IMG/VR virus record: IMGVR_UViG_2636415712_000005
Location: 1-9,660 of that record
Length of the DNA: 9,660 nt
Direction: 5' to 3' (one strand)
From: a virus
Lineage: Duplodnaviria > Heunggongvirae > Uroviricota > Caudoviricetes
Below, in pieces: positions 1 through 9,660 of the stretch (its first letter is position 1; each line of letters starts with the position of its first letter). The notes below the pieces were generated by a model. That model saw only the letters and a program-made list of their open reading frames with translations, was not told the origin of the DNA and searched no databases. Both the position numbers and the translations under genes were made by a program.

Positions 1-1169
<1,169 letters not shown>

Positions 1170-1205
1170 TGGAGCACCTGTGTTGTTCTGAGGTGAGCAT
1201 ATCAC

Positions 1206-1241
1206 CTCTGTTCAGGTGGCCAAATTCAGTGTGCCACTTCA
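1206..1241. repeat. IS911 terminal inverted repeat (orfA-proximal end)
   Basis: The IS-outward end at 1241 reads TGAAGTGGCACACTGAATTTGGCCACCTGAACAGAG on the minus strand. It shares the TGAAGTGG...TGGCCACC pattern with the opposite end. Confidence 0.7.
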
Positions 1242-2108
1242 CCTGGCTGGGATTTTGTGTCTGATGCAGAGCGACTGATGTTCTCCCGTGAGCTAAACCG
1301 CGACATGGGCATCAGTTACTTCCTGAACCCTGACGATTACCGCAAAGCAGGCCGCAACCTGGTAGATGGTGACATCTTCGGGCGCGTTCCTGAAGAAGCA
1401 TATCGAAACGGTACTATTCAGCGTCAGATTGCTGGCTTTGATGAAATTCTTCGCTCACCGAAACTTCCGGCAGTTACCAAGTCAACCGCGACTGGTGTAA
1501 CTGTTTCTGGTGCGCAGAAGTTTAAGCCGCAGGCATACACCCTTGATACCGATGGTAACAAAGAGAACGTCGACAACCGTGTTGCAACGGTGACCGTATC
1601 CTCCACCACCGGATTTAAGCGCGGCGACAAAATCAGCTTCATTGGTGTGAAGTTCCTGTCTCAGATGGCGAAGAATGTGCTGACTGATGACGCGACTTTC
1701 TCAATCACCCGTGTGATCGATGGTACTCACATCGAAATCACGCCGAAGCCGATTGCGCTGGATGACGCGTCACTGACAAAAGAAGAGAAGGCTTACGCTA
1801 ACGTAAACACCTCTCTTGCTGATACCACTCCGGTAAACGTTCTGAACGTGGCAACAACCACCGCTAACGTGTTCTGGGCTGATGACTCAATCCGCCTGCT
1901 GTCTCAGCCGATCCCGGTAACCCATGAACTGTTTGCTGGCATGAAAACGTCTTCCTTCAGCATTCCAGGTATTGGTGTTAACGGCATCTTCGCAACGCAG
2001 GGTGATATCAACACTCTGTCTGGTAAGTGCCGTATTGCTGTGTGGTATTCAGCATGTGCTGTACGACCAGAGGCAATTGGTGTTGGTCTGCCTAACCAGA
2101 CCGCGTGA
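1242..2108 (+). pseudogene. 3' fragment (about 288 codons) of a P22-type major capsid (coat, gene 5) gene, interrupted by the IS911 insertion
   Basis: The reading frame is open from the first base after the IS911 end (translation ...[27 protein letters not shown]...) to TGA at 2106-2108. The sequence strongly resembles the C-terminal two-thirds of P22 coat protein as I recall it ([38 protein letters not shown], ending ...GVGLP-QTA). The N-terminal ~140 codons must lie beyond the IS, outside the window. Confidence 0.85.
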
Positions 2109-2116
2109 TAACCAGA

Positions 2117-2138
2117 GGGAGCTTCGGCTCCCGTTTTT
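2117..2138 (+). terminator. Intrinsic terminator-like hairpin 10 nt downstream of the coat stop
   Basis: GGGAGC (2117-2122), TTCG loop (2123-2126), GCTCCC (2127-2132): a perfect 6-bp GC-rich stem with a UUCG tetraloop, followed by G then TTTTT (2134-2138). Confidence 0.6.
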
Positions 2139-2152
2139 ATCTGGAGACAAGC

Positions 2153-2377
2153 ATGACACACATGATCTTTCGTCATGGCGACATGAAGAAGTGGAAAGGC
2201 GTTGGCTACGACTTTGAAATCGTGAAAGCCGAAGAGCTTCAGGAATATCTGGATGCTGGCTGGTTTTCACATCCTGATGACCTTTTGAAGGATGTTGCAG
2301 AGCCAGAAGAAAAACAGTGTAAAAAGCCTGGTCGAAAACCTAAGGCGGCAGCAGATGAACCTGACAACGAAGGGTGA
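2153..2377 (+). CDS. Small hypothetical protein (74 aa) between coat and gp4; occupies the position of the small ORF found here in P22-like phages
   Basis: ATG at 2153 preceded by GGAGA (2143-2147) with 5-nt spacing. Product [74 protein letters not shown]. Its 3' end overlaps the gp4 start by 23 nt. No family recognised; coding status rests on the RBS and the compact operon context. Confidence 0.5.
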
Positions 2378-2855
2378 TTTAGTTCTTGCGGCATTACGTA
2401 AGCTCGGTGTTGCATCAAATGCCACGTTAACCGATGTCGAACCGCAGTCTATGGAAGACGGCGTCAACGACCTTGAAATGATGATGGCTGAATGGCTTGG
2501 CGGTGATGCGTCACCTGGTATCAACGTTGGCTACATTTTTGCTGATGCAGATGTTGCTCCGGATCCGGGCGATGAGCACGGTTTATCAAATAACGCTATC
2601 AATGCCGTCATTTTCAACCTTGCCTGCCGAATTGCTCCAGATTATGCGCTGGAAGCGTCTGCAAAACTTATAACCACTGCCAGATACGGGAAAGAGCGAC
2701 TCGTCAAACTGTCTGCAATGGACAGGGCAAAAGCAGCTAAATGTAAGTCCGGTTATCCAAACCGTATGCCTGTTGGTAGTGGTAACCAGTTGGCGAAGTG
2801 GAATGGTTGGAATTACTTCCACCGAAAGGAACCTTGCGATAACGGGAGCGAATAA
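2355..2855 (+). CDS. P22 gp4-like tail accessory / packaged-DNA stabilisation protein (166 aa)
   Basis: Start [33 protein letters not shown]... chosen over the track's upstream start (2292) because it follows an AAGGCGG Shine-Dalgarno and gives 166 aa, the length of P22 gp4. Motifs remembered from gp4 are present ([40 protein letters not shown]). Stop TAA overlaps the next ATG (TAATG). Confidence 0.8.
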
Positions 2856-4273
2856 TGCCTATTCAGCAACTTCCGCTTATGAAAGGTGTCGGCAAAGACT
2901 TCCGAAACGCCGACTATATCGACTATCTGCCAGTGAATATGCTGGCTACACCCAAAGAAATCCTGAACAGCAGCGGATATCTTCGCTCATTCCCGGGCAT
3001 TGCCAAACGTTCTGACGTGAACGGTGTATCTCGCGGCGTCGAGTACAACATGGCGCAGAATGCTGTTTATCGCGTGTGTGGCGGCAAGCTGTACAAAGGA
3101 GAAAGTGAAGTCGGTGATGTTGCCGGAAGTGGTCGTGTATCAATGGCGCATGGTCGGACATCACAGGCGGTAGGCGTTAATGGTCAACTGGTCGAGTATC
3201 GCTATGATGGCACGGTCAAAACCGTCTCAAACTGGCCTACAGACAGTGGATTCACTCAGTATGAGTTAGGTTCAGTTCGCGACATTACGCGCTTACGTGG
3301 GCGTTATGCGTGGTCAAAAGACGGAACTGATTCATGGTTTATCACTGACCTTGAAGACGAATCTCATCCTGACCGTTACAGCGCACAATATCGTGCCGAG
3401 TCTCAGCCTGACGGCATCATCGGTATCGGGACATGGCGAGACTTCATCGTCTGCTTTGGTTCATCGACTATTGAATATTTCTCCCTGACTGGCGCAACCA
3501 CCGTTGGTGCCGCTTTGTATGTTGCACAACCATCGCTGATGGTGCAGAAAGGCATTGCCGGAACTTACTGCAAAACGCCATTCGCTGATTCGTATGCGTT
3601 TATCAGCAATCCGGCAACGGGTGCGCCGTCTGTGTATATCATCGACTCCGGTCAGGTGTCACCAATTGCCAGCGCGAGCATTGAGAAAATCCTCCGCTCC
3701 TACACTGCTGATGAACTGGCTGATGGTGTGATGGAATCGCTGCGATTTGATGCTCATGAGTTGCTGATTATCCACCTTCCGCGTCACGTCCTCGTGTACG
3801 ACGCATCTTCAAGCGCCAATGGCCCACAATGGTGTGTGCTGAAAACAGGTCTGTATGACGATGTGTACCGCGCTATCGACTTCGTTTACGAAGGCAATCA
3901 GATAACGTGCGGCGATAAGCTGGAATCTGTTACCGGGAAACTGCAATTCGATATCAGCAGCCAGTACGACAAGCAACAGGAACACCTGCTGTTTACTCCA
4001 CTCTTCAAAGCGGATAACGCCAGAGTGTTCGACCTTGAGGTTGAATCGTCAACTGGCGTTGCGCAGTACGCCGACCGCCTTTTTCTCTCTGCAACCACTG
4101 ACTGCATCAATTACGGGCGTGAGCAGATGATTGAGCAGAATGAACCGTTCGTTTACGACAAGCGTGTTTTGTGGAAGCGAGTAGGGCGCATCAGGAAAAA
4201 TGTCGGCTTCAAATTGCGCGTTATCACGAAGTCACCTGTCACTCTGTCTGGCGCTCAGATAAGGATTGAGTAA
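2855..4273 (+). CDS. P22 gp10-like tail accessory / packaged-DNA stabilisation protein (472 aa)
   Basis: Synteny directly after gp4 and a length of 472 aa, identical to P22 gp10. Start overlaps the gp4 stop (TAATG at 2853-2857); stop overlaps the next start (TAATG at 4271-4275). Confidence 0.85.
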
Positions 4274-5070
4274 TGGCTGATTCGAATCTCAATGTGCCGG
4301 TAATCATCCAAGCTACGCGGCTCGATACATCAGTCCTTCCACGCAATATCTTCTCGCAGTCGTATCTGCTTTACGTTATCGCACAGGGCACTGATGTTGG
4401 TAACGTGGCTAACAAAGCCAACGAGGCCGGACAGGGCGCTTATGATGCACAGGTCAGGAACGATGAGCAGGATGTGATTCTCGCTGACCATGAGCAGCGA
4501 ATTTCTGCTGCGGAAGCAACGCTTGTTAATCATGAGGAGCGAATCAGACAGGCAGAATCAACTCTTCAGGACCATGAAACACGAATAGCTCAGAATGAAA
4601 GCGATATTTCGTCGCTTGACACAAGAGTTCAGTCGCTGGAGTCGCAGGTTTCAGACCATGAAACGCGCATCGATGCTCTGGAGTATGCAACCACACGCAA
4701 GAAGTCAGAGGTTGTTTACTCTGGTGTATCTGTAACCATCCCGACAGCGCCGACCAACCTTGTTAGCCTGCTGAAAACGCTCACACCGTCATCCGGCTCG
4801 TTGGCACCATTCTTCGACACCGTTAACAACAAGATGGTTGTGTTCAACGAGAACAAAACCCTGCTCTTCAAGTTGTCGATTGTCGGCACGTGGCCCAGCG
4901 GAACCGCCAACAGGTCAATGCAGCTAACCTTTTCCGGCTCTGTTCCTGACACACTGGTCAGCAGTCGTAATGCGGCGACAACAACCGACAACATCCTGTT
5001 AGCTACGTTCTTCAGCGTGGATAAAGACGGCTTTCTTGCCACAACCATCAAGATAATCGCGGAGCAGTGA
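4273..5070 (+). CDS. Tail needle (P22 gp26-like N-terminus, trimeric coiled-coil shaft, divergent C-terminal distal domain), 265 aa
   Basis: N-terminus [43 protein letters not shown]... resembles the conserved gp26 N-terminal portal/gp10-plug domain as I recall it. Residues ~60-137 are a heptad-periodic segment with four D/N-H-E-x-R-I motifs spaced by 14 or 28 residues. Residues ~140-265 are beta-rich and not coiled-coil, unlike the all-helical P22 gp26. Confidence 0.85.
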
Positions 5071-5525
5071 TGATTACATTCAAACCAACGCGAAACATCG
5101 ACCTGATAGAAGCAGTCGGAAATCACCCTGACATTATCGCCGGGAGCAACAACGGTGATGGATACGACTACAAACCTGAATGCCGTTACTTTGAGGTGAA
5201 CGTGCACGGTCAGTTTGGCGGCATTGTTTACTATCAGGAGATTCAGCCGCTGACATTAGATTGCCACGCCATGTACCTGCCAGAGATTCGCGGCTTCAGC
5301 AAGGAAATTGGGCTGGCGTTCTGGCGATACATTCTGACTAACACCACCGTTCAGTGCGTAACATCGTTCGCTGCACGCAAATTCCGACACGGTCAGATGT
5401 ACTGCGCAATGATTGGCCTTAAGCGTGTAGGAACCATCAAGAAATACTTCAAAGGCGTGGATGACGTGACTTTTTACAGCGCCACACGCGAAGAACTAAT
5501 CGACTTCCTGAATCACGGGAGATAG
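5070..5525 (+). CDS. Gene-14-position protein (P22 gp14-like by synteny; virion assembly / ejection-associated), 151 aa
   Basis: ATG at 5070 overlaps the tail-needle stop (TGATG); the track uses a GTG one codon upstream (5067). Assignment is by position between the tail needle and the gp7-like gene; I do not recall the gp14 sequence well enough to confirm by similarity. Confidence 0.55.
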   Translation: MITFKPTRNIDLIEAVGNHPDIIAGSNNGDGYDYKPECRYFEVNVHGQFGGIVYYQEIQPLTLDCHAMYLPEIRGFSKEIGLAFWRYILTNTTVQCVTSFAARKFRHGQMYCAMIGLKRVGTIKKYFKGVDDVTFYSATREELIDFLNHGR

Positions 5526-5527
5526 CC

Positions 5528-6136
5528 ATGTTATATGCATTTAAGCTGGGCAGAAAACTGTGCGGCGAGGAACCTTATTGCCCTGAAAAAGGCGGGAAAG
5601 GTGGCAGTTCTGATAAAAGCGCAAAGTATGCAGCAGAAGCCCAGAAGTATGCTGCAGACCTGCAAAATCAGCAGTGGCAGACGATCATGAAAAACCTTGC
5701 TCCGTTCACGCCTCTTGCGGAGCAGTATGTTAACCAGCTTCAGAACCTTTCCAGTTTAGAAGGTCAGGGGCAGGCACTTAATCAGTATTACAACTCTAAG
5801 CAGTATAAAGACCTTGCAGGGCAGGCGCGTTACCAGAGTCTTGCTGCTGCGGAGGCGACGGGTGGACTTGGTTCGACAGCCACAAGCAATCAACTGGCTA
5901 CGATCGCGCCGACACTCGGTCAGTCTTGGTTATCAAATCAGATGAGCAATTACAACAATCTGGCAAACGTTGGGCTTGGTGCGCTGCAAGGTCAGGCAAA
6001 CGCCGGGCAGACGTACGCCAACAACATGAGCAGCATTGCACAGCAAAGCGCAGCTCTTGCCAGCCTTTTGGGAACATCAACGCCTTGGGGCGCTGGTATT
6101 GGTGCTGGTATCGGATTGCTTGGCTCGTTGTTTTAA
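5528..6136 (+). CDS. P22 gp7-like ejection (internal virion) protein, 202 aa
   Basis: N-terminus MLYAFKLGRKLCGEEPYCPEKGGKGGSS resembles the gp7 leader region as I recall it. GGGAG Shine-Dalgarno at 5516-5520. Gly/Ala/Gln-rich with a C-terminal glycine-zipper-like hydrophobic tail (WGAGIGAGIGLLGSLF). Correct synteny. Confidence 0.75.
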   Translation: MLYAFKLGRKLCGEEPYCPEKGGKGGSSDKSAKYAAEAQKYAADLQNQQWQTIMKNLAPFTPLAEQYVNQLQNLSSLEGQGQALNQYYNSKQYKDLAGQARYQSLAAAEATGGLGSTATSNQLATIAPTLGQSWLSNQMSNYNNLANVGLGALQGQANAGQTYANNMSSIAQQSAALASLLGTSTPWGAGIGAGIGLLGSLF

Positions 6137-6145
6137 GGGGTAATC

Positions 6146-7477
6146 ATGGCTACTTGGCAAGGAACAAACGGCGGATTGTTGGCTGGTATCGGCGGCGTCA
6201 ACTCAAACGCTCCGAGCGTAAATGACATCGGCAATACGCTTCAGCTTATCAGGCAGAACAATGATATTGAGCGTTCAGGCGCTAACAATGTTGGGCTGAC
6301 TGCTTTGCAAGGTCTTTCAGGTATTGCGGGTGTTTTTCAGCAGGAAAAGCAGGCTCAGCGGCAGAAAGAATTTCAGCAGGCGTACGCTAATGCTTATGCG
6401 TCTGGTGATCGCGGTGCTTTGCGTCAGTTGGCTACTCAATATCCAGACCAGATTGAATCCGTTCGTAAAGGCATGGGATTCATTGATGAAGAGCAGCGTA
6501 ATTCTATCGGCACCTTAGCGGCTGGCGCACGCCTTGCGTCATCGTCTCCAGAAGCAATGCAATCATGGCTGCAAAACAACGCCGGTGAGTTAGCTCGTGT
6601 TGGCGTTAATCCTCATGACGTCGCTCAGATGTACCAACAGAACCCGCGGCAGTTCGGCGAATTTGTCGATCACCTGGGGATGAACAGTCTCGGGCCCGAA
6701 AAATACTTTGACCTACAGGATAAAATGCAGGGTCGCCAGGTTACCATGCGCGGTCAGGATCTGGATTCGCAAACCGCCGCTCGGAATCAGGCAATCACAA
6801 TGCGCGGACAAGATATCCAGGCGAATTTAGGTCAGCAGCGCATTAATCTGGACGCAGAAACAAACCGCATTAACAACGAAAATAAGCGCCTTGACCGGAT
6901 GCTATCAGCAGAAACTAACGACCTGAAGCGCCAGGAAATACAGAGCCGCATAGCAGCCAACAACCAGCAGTTGCAGCAGAAGCAGCAAGCGCTAAATGAT
7001 GGCTACAAAGACGGCATCAACACCCTCACAACCAGCATGTTCACTCTGAACGATATCGTTAGTTCTCCTTCACTTAAGAGCATTACAGGCTTACGTGGAG
7101 TAATCCCCAACGTTCCAGGCTCACAGGCTGCAGACACTCAGGCACGACTTGATACCTTTAAATCACAAGCATACCTGACAGCGGTTCAGGCCATGCGAGG
7201 CATGGGCGCACTTTCTGATGCCGAGGGCAAAAAGCTCGACCAGGCTGTTGGTTCGCTGCAGAACTCGCAGAGCGAGGAGTCCTTTCGTCGCAACGCTGGC
7301 GTCATCCTGAACACGCTCAACCAGAAGCGTAATGAGGCGGTTGGTAAGTACGTTCAGCAAAACGGTATCAAGCGAGTGGAAGCGCCTCAGGCTTCTATAG
7401 ATTACCTGAAGCAGCACCCCGAGCTGTCAATCGACTTCATTAATCGCTACGGATATCTTCCATCTTTGGGGCAGTAA
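6146..7477 (+). CDS. P22 gp20-like ejection (internal virion) protein, 443 aa
   Basis: Synteny after gp7, with AAGGGG Shine-Dalgarno at 6135-6140. Gly-rich N-terminus and a long Q/N-rich predicted coiled-coil (RINNENKRLDRMLSAETNDLKRQEIQSRIAANNQQLQQKQQALN). Stop TAA is immediately followed by the next ATG (TAAATG). Confidence 0.7.
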   Translation: MATWQGTNGGLLAGIGGVNSNAPSVNDIGNTLQLIRQNNDIERSGANNVGLTALQGLSGIAGVFQQEKQAQRQKEFQQAYANAYASGDRGALRQLATQYPDQIESVRKGMGFIDEEQRNSIGTLAAGARLASSSPEAMQSWLQNNAGELARVGVNPHDVAQMYQQNPRQFGEFVDHLGMNSLGPEKYFDLQDKMQGRQVTMRGQDLDSQTAARNQAITMRGQDIQANLGQQRINLDAETNRINNENKRLDRMLSAETNDLKRQEIQSRIAANNQQLQQKQQALNDGYKDGINTLTTSMFTLNDIVSSPSLKSITGLRGVIPNVPGSQAADTQARLDTFKSQAYLTAVQAMRGMGALSDAEGKKLDQAVGSLQNSQSEESFRRNAGVILNTLNQKRNEAVGKYVQQNGIKRVEAPQASIDYLKQHPELSIDFINRYGYLPSLGQ

Positions 7478-9208
7478 ATGGCTAATTACCGTGATTTGTT
7501 AGAGCAGGCTGGCGCACGTTACGGTGTGCCAGAAGGGTTGATGACTGCACTGGGTGCCAAGGAGTCTTCTTACAACCCTGCCGCAGTAAGCTCCGCCGGG
7601 GCTGTAGGATTGACTCAGGTCATGCCTGGGACATGGCGTGATATGGGTTATACCGATGAGCAAATGCAAAACCCCGAATATCAGGCTGACGCTGGCGCGC
7701 GCTATCTGGCAAAGATGTACCAGCAGTTTGGTAACTGGCGTGACGCTCTTCAGGCTTATCACGACGGTCCCGGCAACGTTATGAAGGCAAAGCGTGGTGA
7801 ATATACGCCAGGACCTGAAGGCCGCGGTTACGTTGATGATCGCTTTGCTCAATGGGCTGGTGACCCGGTGACAGACTCAACAGTCGAACAGCGCGCCACC
7901 TCTGCAAAGGTACATCCTCAGCAAGACCCTAACAACCCGTTTGCACAACTGGAAGTACAGTCATCCGAACAAGTATCGGCATCAGGTGTGCAGTCAGACC
8001 CAAATAATCCATTTGCTCAGATTGAGCAGCAGGCAGCCAGTCAGCAGCCACCTCAACCCGTAAGTTCTGTCGCACCGAAACCTGTTCAGCAACAAACAGT
8101 TAATCAGGCCAATAATGCACCAACACGGGAAGAACCATCATTGATGCAACAAGCTGGCGATTGGCTCACTGGTGGTCAAAGTGCAGGGCAAATTGCAGAA
8201 CAGGCTGGTCGTGGTCTGGTAAACATACCATTTGACGTATTGCAGGGTGGCGCAAGTCTGATTAATGCAATCAGTCAGGGGCTTGGGGGGCCAAAAGTAT
8301 TGGATGATGTTTATCGTCCAGTAGACAGACCGACAGACCCCTACGCGCAAGCTGGAGAGTCAATAGGCGGTTATCTTGTTCCTGGAGCAGGTGTAGCTGG
8401 AAACATGGTCATTGGTTCTCTCGCTGACGCGGCGAATCAACGGGGTGATTTTGCCGAAAATGCCGCTATTAATGCCGGACTTAGCATTGCTACGCATGGC
8501 CTGATAAATGGCGTTACCCGTGGTGTTCGTGGTGCATCAAATATAATTAGTGGCAATAAAACATCTGCACAGAGAGCGACCACTGCGCCAACAGAAACAT
8601 CACCATTCTCCGGTGATGCCGCTGCAGCAACAAATCCTGCGGTTCATGCCGCAGAGGCAAGAGTAGCACAAGGTGTACCAATGACGCCTGCGACGAAGAA
8701 CCCAGAGGAAGTCGTTCGCACAGTAGCAGCACAAAAAAGGCCAAATCTCGCTTCATCGCTTGATGAACTAGATATCAATCCTCAGGCTGAAGTTCTGGAG
8801 TCTGCTGAAAGGCTTAATGTTGATTCATTACTCCCTTCACACTTTTCCGGGAACGAGCAATACAAGGCAGTTGAGCAAGCAATCAAGTCCCGTGCGGGTT
8901 CTGCTCTACAGGTGCAGGAAAATGAAGCAATCAGGCAGCTAGCACAGGGCGCGGGTGAGATAATTGATCGCGTTTCCGGTGCAAAAGATGCTCTTGGTAT
9001 GAGCGACAAGTTTATTGATACGGTCAATGGAAGAATGTCTGCGCTGATGAAACGAAGCGACCAGCTTTATCGCAATGTTGAAAAGGCGATGCCTGCAGGT
9101 GCAAAAATTGATGCGCCATCAACAAGGTCAATGCTCAAACAGGTGGCAGAAGATCTTGGCGGGATGAAAAACCTTGACCCTATTGAAAAGAGAGTTGAGG
9201 TAGCCTGA
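7478..9208 (+). CDS. Gene-16-position ejection protein with N-terminal lytic transglycosylase (SLT) domain, 576 aa
   Basis: Residues ~20-125 carry family-1 SLT hallmarks: catalytic Glu in GAKESSYNP (codon at 7562-7564), [14 protein letters not shown], and [13 protein letters not shown]-rich linker follows with two tandem DPNNPFAQ(L/I)E repeats (7925-7960 and 7997-8032), then a ~380-aa C-terminal region. Position corresponds to P22 gene 16. Confidence 0.8.
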
Positions 9209-9220
9209 GTTTAACGGACA

Positions 9221-9253
9221 CTCCTTCCTGAAATAGAATGGCATCAGAAGGAG
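9221..9253 (+). promoter_or_regulatory. Inverted repeat able to sequester the Shine-Dalgarno of the downstream (IS-truncated) gene
   Basis: CTCCTTC (9221-9227) is the exact reverse complement of GAAGGAG (9247-9253), which is the Shine-Dalgarno of the ATG at 9260. A 7-bp stem with a 19-nt loop. Confidence 0.3.
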
Positions 9254-9259
9254 CTAATA

Positions 9260-9279
9260 ATGAGCAGAAAAACCCAACG
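9260..9279 (+). pseudogene. 5' stub of an unknown gene (MSRKTQR...) truncated by the IS629 insertion
   Basis: Strong Shine-Dalgarno AAGGAG (9248-9253), 6-nt spacer, ATG at 9260. The frame runs straight into the IS629 terminal repeat after 7 codons. Confidence 0.4.
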
Positions 9280-9305
9280 TGAACCGCCCCGGGAATCCTG
9301 GAGAC
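9280..9305. repeat. IS629 left terminal inverted repeat
   Basis: Begins with the IS3-family terminal TG(A) at 9280. The exact inner boundary cannot be set without the partner repeat, which lies outside the window. Confidence 0.55.
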
Positions 9306-9333
9306 TAAACTTCCTGAGAAAGAGGTAAACAGG

Positions 9334-9660
9334 ATGACTAAAAATACTCGTTTTTCCCCCGAAGTCCGTCAACGGGCAGTCCGTATGGTTCTGGAAAGTC
9401 AGGGCGAATATGACTCACAATGGGCGACAATTTGTTCCATTGCCCCAAAGATTGGCTGTACGCCGGAGACTCTGCGTGTCTGGGTTCGCCAGCATGAGCG
9501 GGATACCGGGGGCGGTGATGGAGGGCTCACCACCGCTGAACGTCAGCGTCTGAAAGAGCTGGAGCGTGAAAATCGTGAACTGCGCCGCAGTAACGATATC
9601 CTTCGCCAGGCTTCCGCTTATTTTGCGAAGGCGGAGTTCGACCGCCTCTGGAAAAAATGA
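9334..9660 (+). CDS. IS629 OrfA (helix-turn-helix transposase N-terminal subunit, 108 aa)
   Basis: [108 protein letters not shown], with stop TGA at 9658-9660 exactly at the window end. An A-rich tract (GGAAAAAATGA) at the orfA terminus is where orfB would overlap. Confidence 0.9.

Follow-up and report, generated by a model that had tools for sequence, protein, structure and literature searches.

The window analysed here, meaning the whole stretch of 9,660 nucleotides, holds a prophage remnant that retains the C-terminal part of the coat gene, then gp4, gp10, gp26, gp14, gp7, gp20 and the N-terminal part of gp16, with insertion sequences (IS) at both edges. One edge is formed by an IS3-family element on the minus strand (1-1241, with a terminal repeat ending at 1241 and a Pfam rve match on the minus-strand ORF 1-840), which is presumably IS911, judging from its inverted repeat. 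The coat gene is cut short by this element: of the 423 positions of its Pfam profile, the remaining fragment matches only 148-422. Among the genes that follow, a gp4 homologue lies at 2292-2855, gp7 carries a 28-codon deletion and a gp20 homologue of 443 aa occupies 6146-7477 (plus strand; Pfam Inj_translocase). After gp7 and gp20, in the gene-16 position that the earlier note had assigned to it, stands the ORF of interest (7478-9208, plus strand), which encodes 576 aa without interruption and has both a start and a stop codon. Its downstream neighbours have been replaced by an 83-bp left-end fragment of IS600 (9196-9278, plus strand) and by the start of a second IS3-family element (9279-9660, plus strand) that sits inside the IS600 end, with orfA at 9334-9660 and a Pfam HTH_Tnp_1 match. 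Copies annotated "IS3 family transposase" in 3680 E. coli genomes match this second element at 99.7% identity, and it is presumably IS629/IS1203-like, judging from its inverted repeat and OrfA sequence. No portal, terminase, scaffold, coat N-terminus or tailspike was found within the window. Since IS600 cuts gene 16 and another IS cuts the coat gene, we consider the locus to be a dead prophage remnant, and it is fixed in Shigella flexneri.

The ORF product starts with an SLT lytic transglycosylase domain, as the earlier note had proposed: Pfam SLT (PF01464) matches aa 7-110 (7496-7807, plus strand; E=1.9e-25, 89.2 bits against a cut-off of 21.3), and the folded domain is wider, covering about aa 1-127. 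The three signature blocks read from the sequence are all present (E29-S-S-Y-N-P, G44-L-T-Q-V-M-P and A93-Y-H-D-G-P-G), and the predicted catalytic Glu29 (codon 7562-7564, plus strand) aligns with E478 of Slt70 and E37 of T7 gp16. In the alignment of homologues, E29 and AYHDGPG are invariant, while within GLTQVMP only G44, Q47 and V48 are. E. coli Slt70 was matched by phmmer (E=5e-10) and the N-terminus of T7-type gp16 by hhalign (probability 96.9%, E=1.6e-10, aa 2-123 against T7 9-143); the match to PHROG 342 (E=1.8e-24) is restricted to positions 14-243 of a profile of 1235. Residues 1-127 are predicted to adopt a lysozyme-like alpha-helical fold, with pLDDT values of 72-87 across most of this region in an AF2 model computed from a 26-sequence alignment. 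All of the best 50 of 75 Foldseek matches in the PDB were lytic transglycosylases, the Slt/Slt70 matches having rmsd values of 2.5-3.4 Å over about 141 columns. Slt70 and the other family-1 lytic transglycosylases share the catalytic fold and motifs of this domain, whereas the window type has neither a signal peptide nor the superhelical U/L domains and forms part of a phage ejection protein. As AF2 was confident for the SLT domain alone (pLDDT below 50 for 330 of the 572 residues), the model gives no structural support to roles of the linker or the body.

The domain is followed by a linker rich in Q, P, A, V and S (aa 126-220; 7853-8137, plus strand), recognised from its composition (Q 17%, P 13%, A 11%), for most of which the AF2 pLDDT is below 50. 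It contains two 12-residue repeats carrying DPNNPFAQ, located exactly where they had first been noticed (7925-7960 and 7997-8032, plus strand) and spaced with a period of 24 aa. The repeats share 24 of 36 nt, and the six differences within their 8-codon core are all synonymous third-position changes; composition-preserving shuffles of the protein produced an exact 6-mer repeat in only 1.7% of cases. In homologues from Escherichia, Cronobacter, Klebsiella and Shimwellia the motif keeps the form DPxNPFAQ[LI]E, and it occurs in conserved pairs across genera. Neither transmembrane segments nor a signal peptide were found in the window ORF product, whose maximum Kyte-Doolittle 19-residue mean (1.2) falls in a Gly/Ala-rich stretch around aa 300-315. 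We also considered, and rejected, an equivalence of the linker with the "molecular tape" of T7 gp16, where T7-like proteins conserve an NPFAQ-like P[FY]AKxFWE: hhalign aligns the SLT domain only, so this 4-residue resemblance is not evidence.

Behind the linker lies a conserved gp16 core (aa 221-353; 8138-8536, plus strand) common to P22, HK620, CUS-3 and epsilon34, which is 80% identical to residues 53-189 of P22 gp16 and about 91% identical at the nucleotide level to gene 16 of HK620, CUS-3 and epsilon34. A 10-residue motif related to the linker repeats is found in it (8327-8356, plus strand), and a related motif, DPYAQxG, is present in every gp16 core; PF26808 (Phage_P22_gp16) is on record for the identical protein cluster. 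The remainder (aa 354-572; 8537-9195, plus strand) is a gp16 body of the Sf101 type, cut short, for which Sf101 and APC_JM3.2 are the only DNA-level matches. The alignment of residues 130-576 with the C-terminal region of P22 gp16, suggested as a check in the earlier note, does not hold up in pairwise comparison: the 133-residue core alone aligns, and the rest is related to P22 gp16 at profile level only, through PHROG 770 (E=8e-163 against Sf101 aa 108-864). P22 gp16 itself (YP_063718.1, 609 aa; PHROG 770 / PF26808) resembles the window ORF in gene position and core, but it has a 52-residue N-terminus (MKVTANGKTF...) in place of the 220-residue SLT and linker, and its body is of a different sequence type. 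Nothing in it aligned to window residues 1-220, in keeping with the earlier view of the SLT domain as mosaic rather than conserved in P22.

The closest known protein is gp13 of Enterobacteria phage Sf101 (AII27837.1, annotated "transglycosylase", 911 aa), which likewise follows gp7 and gp20 and is 99% identical to the ORF product over residues 1-573 (567 of 573 aa). The corresponding DNA, Sf101 gene 13, is 98.5% identical over nt 1-1718 of the ORF, and the match ends there; homology to E. coli prophages likewise stops at window position 9195, and the IS600 terminal sequence starts exactly at this point (9195/9196). In E. coli, over 3000 copies with the annotation "IS3-like element IS600 family transposase" match the stretch 9196-9278 without mismatch. 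The phage-derived part of the ORF (7478-9195, plus strand) thus comprises codons 1-572 plus 2 nt of an intact gene of 911 codons, and the IS600 end contributes the last base of codon 573 as well as codons 574-576 and the TGA stop codon (9206-9208). As phage homology stops at 9195 and the last codons are IS600-derived, position 9208 is not the natural end of the gene, and the C-terminal region of about 380 aa described in the earlier note represents about half of the true gp16 body. Compared with Sf101 gp13, the window copy is missing 338 C-terminal residues and differs by six substitutions. The truncation also explains the partial coverage of the PHROG 770 profile (positions 3-349 of 668 for the window ORF, 3-651 for Sf101), which indicates that a complete gp16 body is absent from the window ORF. 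We found the exact junction in just two genomes, S. flexneri SFBU1023 and a 4.44-Mb genome labelled E. coli, and in these two the missing 3' part of the gene was not found within about 7 kb downstream of the IS elements. The exact 576-aa product occurs on 376 contigs, mostly of S. flexneri.

Intact relatives, all of 744-1047 aa, are widespread. The proteins of APC_JM3.2, IME10, phiKp_30, Huey and Dewey have an identical architecture (SLT, two NPFAQ repeats and gp16 core), and the gp7-gp20-SLT-gp16 gene order is shared by Sf101, IME10, Huey, phiKp_30, Skarpretter, IME_EC2, IME279, Kc259 and C130_2. SLT-gp16 was found in several Lederbergvirus phages and in all sampled phages of Skarprettervirus, Murrayvirus, Sortsnevirus and Hungariovirus; it is encoded intact by 70 of 5426 complete E. 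coli genomes (1.3%), and hundreds of genomes list it under the name "lytic transglycosylase domain-containing protein". The arrangement is not unusual, being the rule among the phages sampled from these four sister genera, and the intact architecture is common, already annotated and ordinary. The idea of an N-terminal module swap, put forward in the earlier note, is borne out. The same gp16 body is found with three alternative N-terminal modules, including the P22 type and the MAKAW type, and an identical SLT and linker (aa 1-206) is found on bodies that are just 20-40% identical, with a mosaic junction near aa 206 ("PKPVQQQ") beyond which IME10 and phiKp_30 diverge. From these comparisons, the SLT domain and its linker appear to form one of at least three interchangeable N-terminal cassettes.

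The exchange seems to extend into the preceding gene. gp20 is at least 95% identical in all Lederbergvirus phages that carry the SLT domain, the gp20 tail paired with SLT-type gp16 has the form [YF]G[YF]LP and, judged from the sequences, the C-terminal part of gp20, about its C-terminal half, appears to be exchanged or co-inherited together with the SLT and linker. As a separate observation, the type of the gp20 C-terminal tail co-varied with the type of the gp16 N-module in 14 of 14 cases. It has been reported that gp16 and gp20 must be matched for function (P22/Sf6 hybrids, PMC10883804). We tentatively raise the possibility, which we regard as rather doubtful, that the unit of exchange consists of two genes (the gp20 C-terminal part and the gp16 N-module) instead of the SLT domain alone, and that the paired motif is a docking peptide that links gp16 with the gp20 tail matching it, in a role equivalent to that of the "molecular tape" of T7 gp16 on gp15. 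The candidate docking motif takes the form DPxNPFAQ[LI]E in the window type and N-x-F-[AD]-Q-F in four of five sampled virulent relatives, and the related DPYAQxG of the gp16 cores would belong with it; two copies of the broader form N-x-F-[AD]-Q-[FLI] are present in four of the five.

These virulent P22 relatives (Skarpretter, IME_EC2, IME279, C130_2 and Kosakonia Kc259) encode "DNA transfer proteins" of 977-1047 aa in the same gene order. Their SLT domain is 55-63% identical to that of the window, whereas their gp16-family bodies are only distantly related. One of their motif copies precedes the SLT domain, at the very N-terminus, whereas the window type has both copies after it. A further analogue is T7 gp16 (internal virion protein D, PHROG 342), the largest of the ejected proteins, which likewise starts with an SLT domain; E37 and E29 are aligned, identity is 28% over 130 aa, and an "EGRxY" extension after the catalytic core is common to both. 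With hhalign and BLASTP, no homology was found past residue ~123, neither to the "molecular tape" of T7 (residues 157-228) nor to the C-terminal body of about 1100 aa. In the T7 virion these proteins are arranged as a core stack, which is absent from P22-like phages (PMC8954989).

Taken together, it is very probable that IS600 interrupted an Sf101-type gene 16 in a P22-like (Lederbergvirus) prophage at 9195/9196, so that the ORF represents its 5' 63% and is now a pseudogene in a defective S. flexneri remnant, and that the intact protein, presumably an ejected murein cutter, combines an SLT domain, a linker and a gp16 body and has a swappable N-terminal cassette. One could instead read the 576-aa ORF as a complete and functional mosaic ejection protein, considering that it is uninterrupted between its start and stop codons, that annotation pipelines call its product as a full protein and that the profile of PHROG 21143 has a length of exactly 576. 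This is almost certainly wrong, given that identity to the 911-aa protein breaks off at residue 573 directly before the IS600 terminal repeat, that none of the intact relatives is shorter than 744 aa, and that the IS-flanked prophage lacks the parts listed above within the window. Domestication of the truncated fragment by Shigella, which would use it as a murein enzyme and express it through an IS-derived or read-through promoter, would agree with the intact catalytic motifs and with a reading frame kept intact on 376 contigs. Yet this retention is accounted for by the clonal descent of S. flexneri, the fragment has neither a signal peptide nor a strongly hydrophobic segment, and its neighbours are decaying (the gp7 deletion and the cut coat gene), which makes such a host function highly unlikely. 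This window copy, a pseudogene cut off by IS600 in a remnant with IS elements at both edges, cannot deliver anything, and the earlier proposal that the injected protein itself cuts peptidoglycan does not apply to it.

The proposal may be transferred to the intact 911-aa protein, which consists of the SLT domain (aa 1-127), a disordered linker with two DPNNPFAQ motifs (aa 128-220) and the gp16-family body (aa 221-911). We suggest that this protein would be packaged in the capsid and leave through the tail with gp7 and gp20, that its N-terminal domain would reach the periplasm, where Glu29 would cut the MurNAc-GlcNAc bond locally, that the cut would open the murein for a gp20/gp16 trans-envelope conduit, as the T7 gp16 N-terminal domain does, and that the gp16 body would then work at the inner membrane. 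The presumed role derives from the likeness to T7 gp16, whose N-terminal transglycosylase is periplasmic and is required when the peptidoglycan is highly cross-linked (Moak & Molineux 2000, summarised in PMC8954989); by this analogy, a T7-gp16-like peptidoglycan cleavage during DNA delivery is likely. Alternatively, the SLT domain could be a non-catalytic peptidoglycan-binding anchor, or an enzyme of lysis or of the tail fibre, and not an ejected enzyme. One RefSeq record for the Sf101 protein, and also PHROG, do use the label "lytic tail fiber protein", and P22-type phages infect without an SLT domain. We regard this as very unlikely, however, as neither the catalytic Glu nor any of the three motifs varies across genera, the body is homologous to gp16 over its full length and occupies the gp16 slot, the nearest functional analogue (T7 gp16) is an ejected internal protein, and every complete relative encodes its tailspike separately, in a gene further downstream. 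For the preferred role as an ejected murein cutter, it must be considered that the muralytic activity of P22 is attributed to gp4 (PMC5380687), as the earlier note had stated. Since P22 lacks the SLT domain and its activity is attributed to gp4, of which a homologue is also present here, the SLT domain may be dispensable or only conditionally useful.

The window copy itself is of little significance, being a dead, IS-truncated version of an already catalogued protein. The phages that carry SLT-gp16 would be natural material for asking whether the activity associated with gp4 in P22 is supplemented or replaced by an ejected transglycosylase, and in which of their parts gp16 and gp20 have to be matched. 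If the docking reading were true, the determinants of gp16-gp20 compatibility in P22/Sf6 hybrids would be readable directly from genomes.

The 576-aa ORF in gene-16 position (7478-9208, + strand) starts, as the earlier note had proposed, with an SLT (lytic transglycosylase) domain. Within residues 1-130, where a Pfam check had been suggested, SLT (PF01464) matches residues 7-110 (E=1.9e-25, 89 bits for a cut-off of 21), and the three SLT motifs are present (E29-SSYNP, GLTQVMP and AYHDGPG), E29 being aligned with the catalytic E478 of Slt70 and E37 of T7 gp16. The AlphaFold2 model is reasonably confident over residues 1-127 and, when the SLT-domain model was compared with the PDB using Foldseek, only lytic transglycosylases (Slt, Slt70, MltD, MltE, MltF, LtgA) were found among the matches listed. 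The two 12-residue repeats described in the linker are also present (7925-7960 and 7997-8032, + strand). Their 8-codon core shows six third-position differences, all synonymous; what is conserved in the repeats is the peptide and not the DNA.

All the features previously described are thus in the sequence, except the 3' boundary: the end of the ORF comes from IS600, which makes its reading as a complete gene inappropriate. By megablast, the Sf101 gene (2736 nt, 911 aa, AII27837.1, annotated 'transglycosylase') is 98.5% identical to the ORF, but over nt 1-1718 of 1731 only. The two proteins share 567 of 573 residues, after which Sf101 runs on with ...IEKRVFRAVNPGKNG..., and the window continues from 9196 with TGAGGTAGCCTGAGTTTAACGG... 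Thousands of E. coli copies match this sequence at 100% identity, some of them annotated 'IS3-like element IS600 family transposase', and the final three codons of the ORF and its TGA stop belong to it. The IS600 left end extends over only 83 bp (9196-9278, 100% identical to annotated copies), up to a second, nested IS3-family element that interrupts it (9279-9660), presumably IS629/IS1203-like. RefSeq gives an 'AL1L pseudoknot' annotation beneath the E. coli copies matching the 9196-9278 / 9279-9660 region. In none of 5426 complete E. coli genomes was the ORF-IS600 junction found, every match to the phage gene ending at window position 9195. When one genome was scanned for each species, only two contained the exact junction, Shigella flexneri SFBU1023 and a 4.44-Mb genome with an E. 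coli label; in neither did the next ~7 kb contain the 3' third that the ORF lacks. In SFBU1023 (locus positions 1138-8000), the ~7 kb past the second IS are devoid of Sf101 homology and broken up into many short ORFs, possibly as a result of decay or of errors in the assembly. An identical 576-aa product is encoded on 376 contigs, S. flexneri and E. coli being among the names listed for it; the remaining members listed in its cluster are 'partial' S. flexneri proteins from contigs of ~12.6-13.8 kb. This pattern has the look of a fixed IS-bounded remnant in short-read assemblies. The profile of PHROG 21143 ('lytic tail fiber protein') is exactly 576 positions long, which suggests that the truncated Shigella form seeded this family and its misleading name.

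The window corresponds to the part of a P22-like (Lederbergvirus) late operon dedicated to virion completion and ejection, with IS elements at both edges (1-1241 and 9196 to the window end). Pfam identified, all on the + strand, a coat-protein fragment (1257-2108), gp4 (2292-2855, P22_Tail-4), gp10 (2855-4273, Phage_stabilise), the gp26 needle with an Sf6-type knob (4273-5070, Phage_tail_NK), gp14 (5067-5525, DUF2824), gp7 (5528-6136, P22_gp7), gp20 (6146-7477, Inj_translocase) and the SLT ORF. The terminal repeat of the IS3-family element at 1-1241 (- strand), which we take from this repeat to be IS911, ends exactly at the start of the coat fragment. The P22-type coat gene is cut by this element, its remnant (1242-2108) matching only profile positions 148-422 of 423, and no portal, terminase or scaffold gene is left on that side within the window. 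With regard to Sf101, gp7 is 202 instead of 230 aa long and has an in-frame 84-nt (28-codon) deletion at about 6055-6061, the junction of which shows a 7-nt overlap; the deletion falls where Pfam P22_gp7 matches as two stretches only. The needle is 265 aa long with knob domain PF16532 (212 aa in Sf101) and its DNA ceases to match that of Sf101 over about 4494-5069, a further mosaic joint within the same module. The ORF is an IS600-truncated pseudogene in a prophage unable to make particles.

The intact protein is composed of the SLT domain (residues 1-127), a linker rich in Q/P/A/V/S and modelled with low confidence (128-220), with short helices predicted at both NPFAQ motifs (the repeats), and a gp16 body from residue 221 to the end. 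P22 gp16 does not have this SLT extension, as had been supposed, and aligns only from window residue 221. The alignment proposed for residues 130-576 succeeded for the core (P22 residues 53-189 with window residues 221-353, 80% identity), the remainder giving no pairwise alignment. PHROG 770 (P22 gp16 family) covers Sf101 residues 108-864 (E=8e-163), the window copy reaching profile position 349 of 668 only, and PF26808 (Phage_P22_gp16) is the precomputed Pfam family of the ORF's cluster. The protein is therefore a true gp16 homologue, extended at its N-terminus by an enzymatic domain.

This architecture is common, annotated and already catalogued, which the earlier note had missed. About 154 phage records have a P22-type gp7; the SLT module was found at ≥98% identity in ten records representing seven phages. 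It is also present in 70 of the 5426 E. coli genomes (67 at ≥99% nucleotide identity), where it bears the name 'lytic transglycosylase domain-containing protein'. In a large protein search, PF01464+PF26808 was listed for Escherichia, Cronobacter, Klebsiella, Shimwellia and Serratia, with 1295 members in a single 797-aa cluster. Five virulent relatives sharing the gene order (Skarprettervirus, Murrayvirus IME_EC2, Sortsnevirus IME279, Hungariovirus C130_2 and Kosakonia Kc259) encode a gene-16-position protein of 977-1047 aa whose SLT domain is 55-63% identical to that of the window, the body matching the PHROG gp16 family in four of them.

The proposed mosaic nature of the N-terminus was found in both directions. 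The Sf101-type body (at least about 90% identical to the window from 'SLMQ.AG.WLTGG' on) also occurs without the SLT module in E. coli prophages, behind a P22-type N-terminus (MKVTANGKTF..., 743-754 aa) or a third type (MAKAWKDVIASPQYQ..., 754-777 aa). Conversely, Sf101, IME10, Huey and phiKp_30 share the SLT+linker module (residues 1-206) at 100% identity, in front of bodies only 20-40% identical (IME10, phiKp_30) or diverging past residue ~300 (Huey). Junctions cluster at 'PKPVQQQ' (about residue 206) and where the conserved core ends. Two DPxNPFAQ[LI]E copies are kept in all SLT-type Lederbergvirus-like homologues and, C130_2 excepted, the sampled virulent relatives (4/5) have two N-x-F-[AD]-Q-F copies, so that the motif, in the general form N-x-F-[AD]-Q-[FLI], spans several genera. 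One of these lies at the extreme N-terminus (MANVFDQFDQ, MANPFAQFAD) and the other behind the SLT domain, whereas both are behind it in the window-type gp16. A related DPYAQxG motif (8327-8356) belongs to the P22-type core common to all sampled Lederbergvirus-type proteins, P22 included, except IME10-type bodies.

The gp20 C-terminal tail co-varies with the gp16 N-terminal module in 14/14 phages and prophages: ...SKSGI[KQ]FTVE with MKVTANGKTF (3/3), ...FSSLWGD with MAKAWKDV (6/6) and ...RYGYLPSLGQ with SLT (5/5). Similar [YF]G[YF]LP-like tails end three of the four gp20s sampled from virulent SLT-type phages. Neither the first ~200 residues of gp20 nor the gp16 body follows this pairing, which argues for a mosaic exchange unit straddling the gp20/gp16 gene boundary (6146-7477 with 7478-8095). 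As the two segments abut in DNA, plain linkage of adjoining segments could explain the pattern. In P22/Sf6 hybrid phages, gp16 and gp20 function only if they come from one phage (PMC10883804), which fits a gp20-C/gp16-N interface.

The SLT domain of the ORF and the N-terminal domain of T7 gp16 are homologous (hhalign probability 96.9%, residues 2-123 with T7 9-143), and both have an 'EGRxY' extension past the generic SLT core. Homology was not found beyond this domain, to the T7 'molecular tape' or large C-terminal body; the protein is therefore not a member of the T7 gp16 family, although it would work like T7 gp16-N. According to PMC8954989, which summarises Moak & Molineux, T7 ejects gp16, an internal protein whose transglycosylase acts in the periplasm and matters with highly cross-linked murein. 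By analogy, the intact Sf101-type protein, and not the pseudogene copy of the window, would most likely cut peptidoglycan locally once ejected, while gp20 and gp16 build the conduit. The muralytic activity of P22 virions has been assigned to gp4 (PMC5380687), in agreement with the earlier note, and a gp4 homologue is also present in the window (2292-2855); the SLT domain may be an additional or conditional aid.
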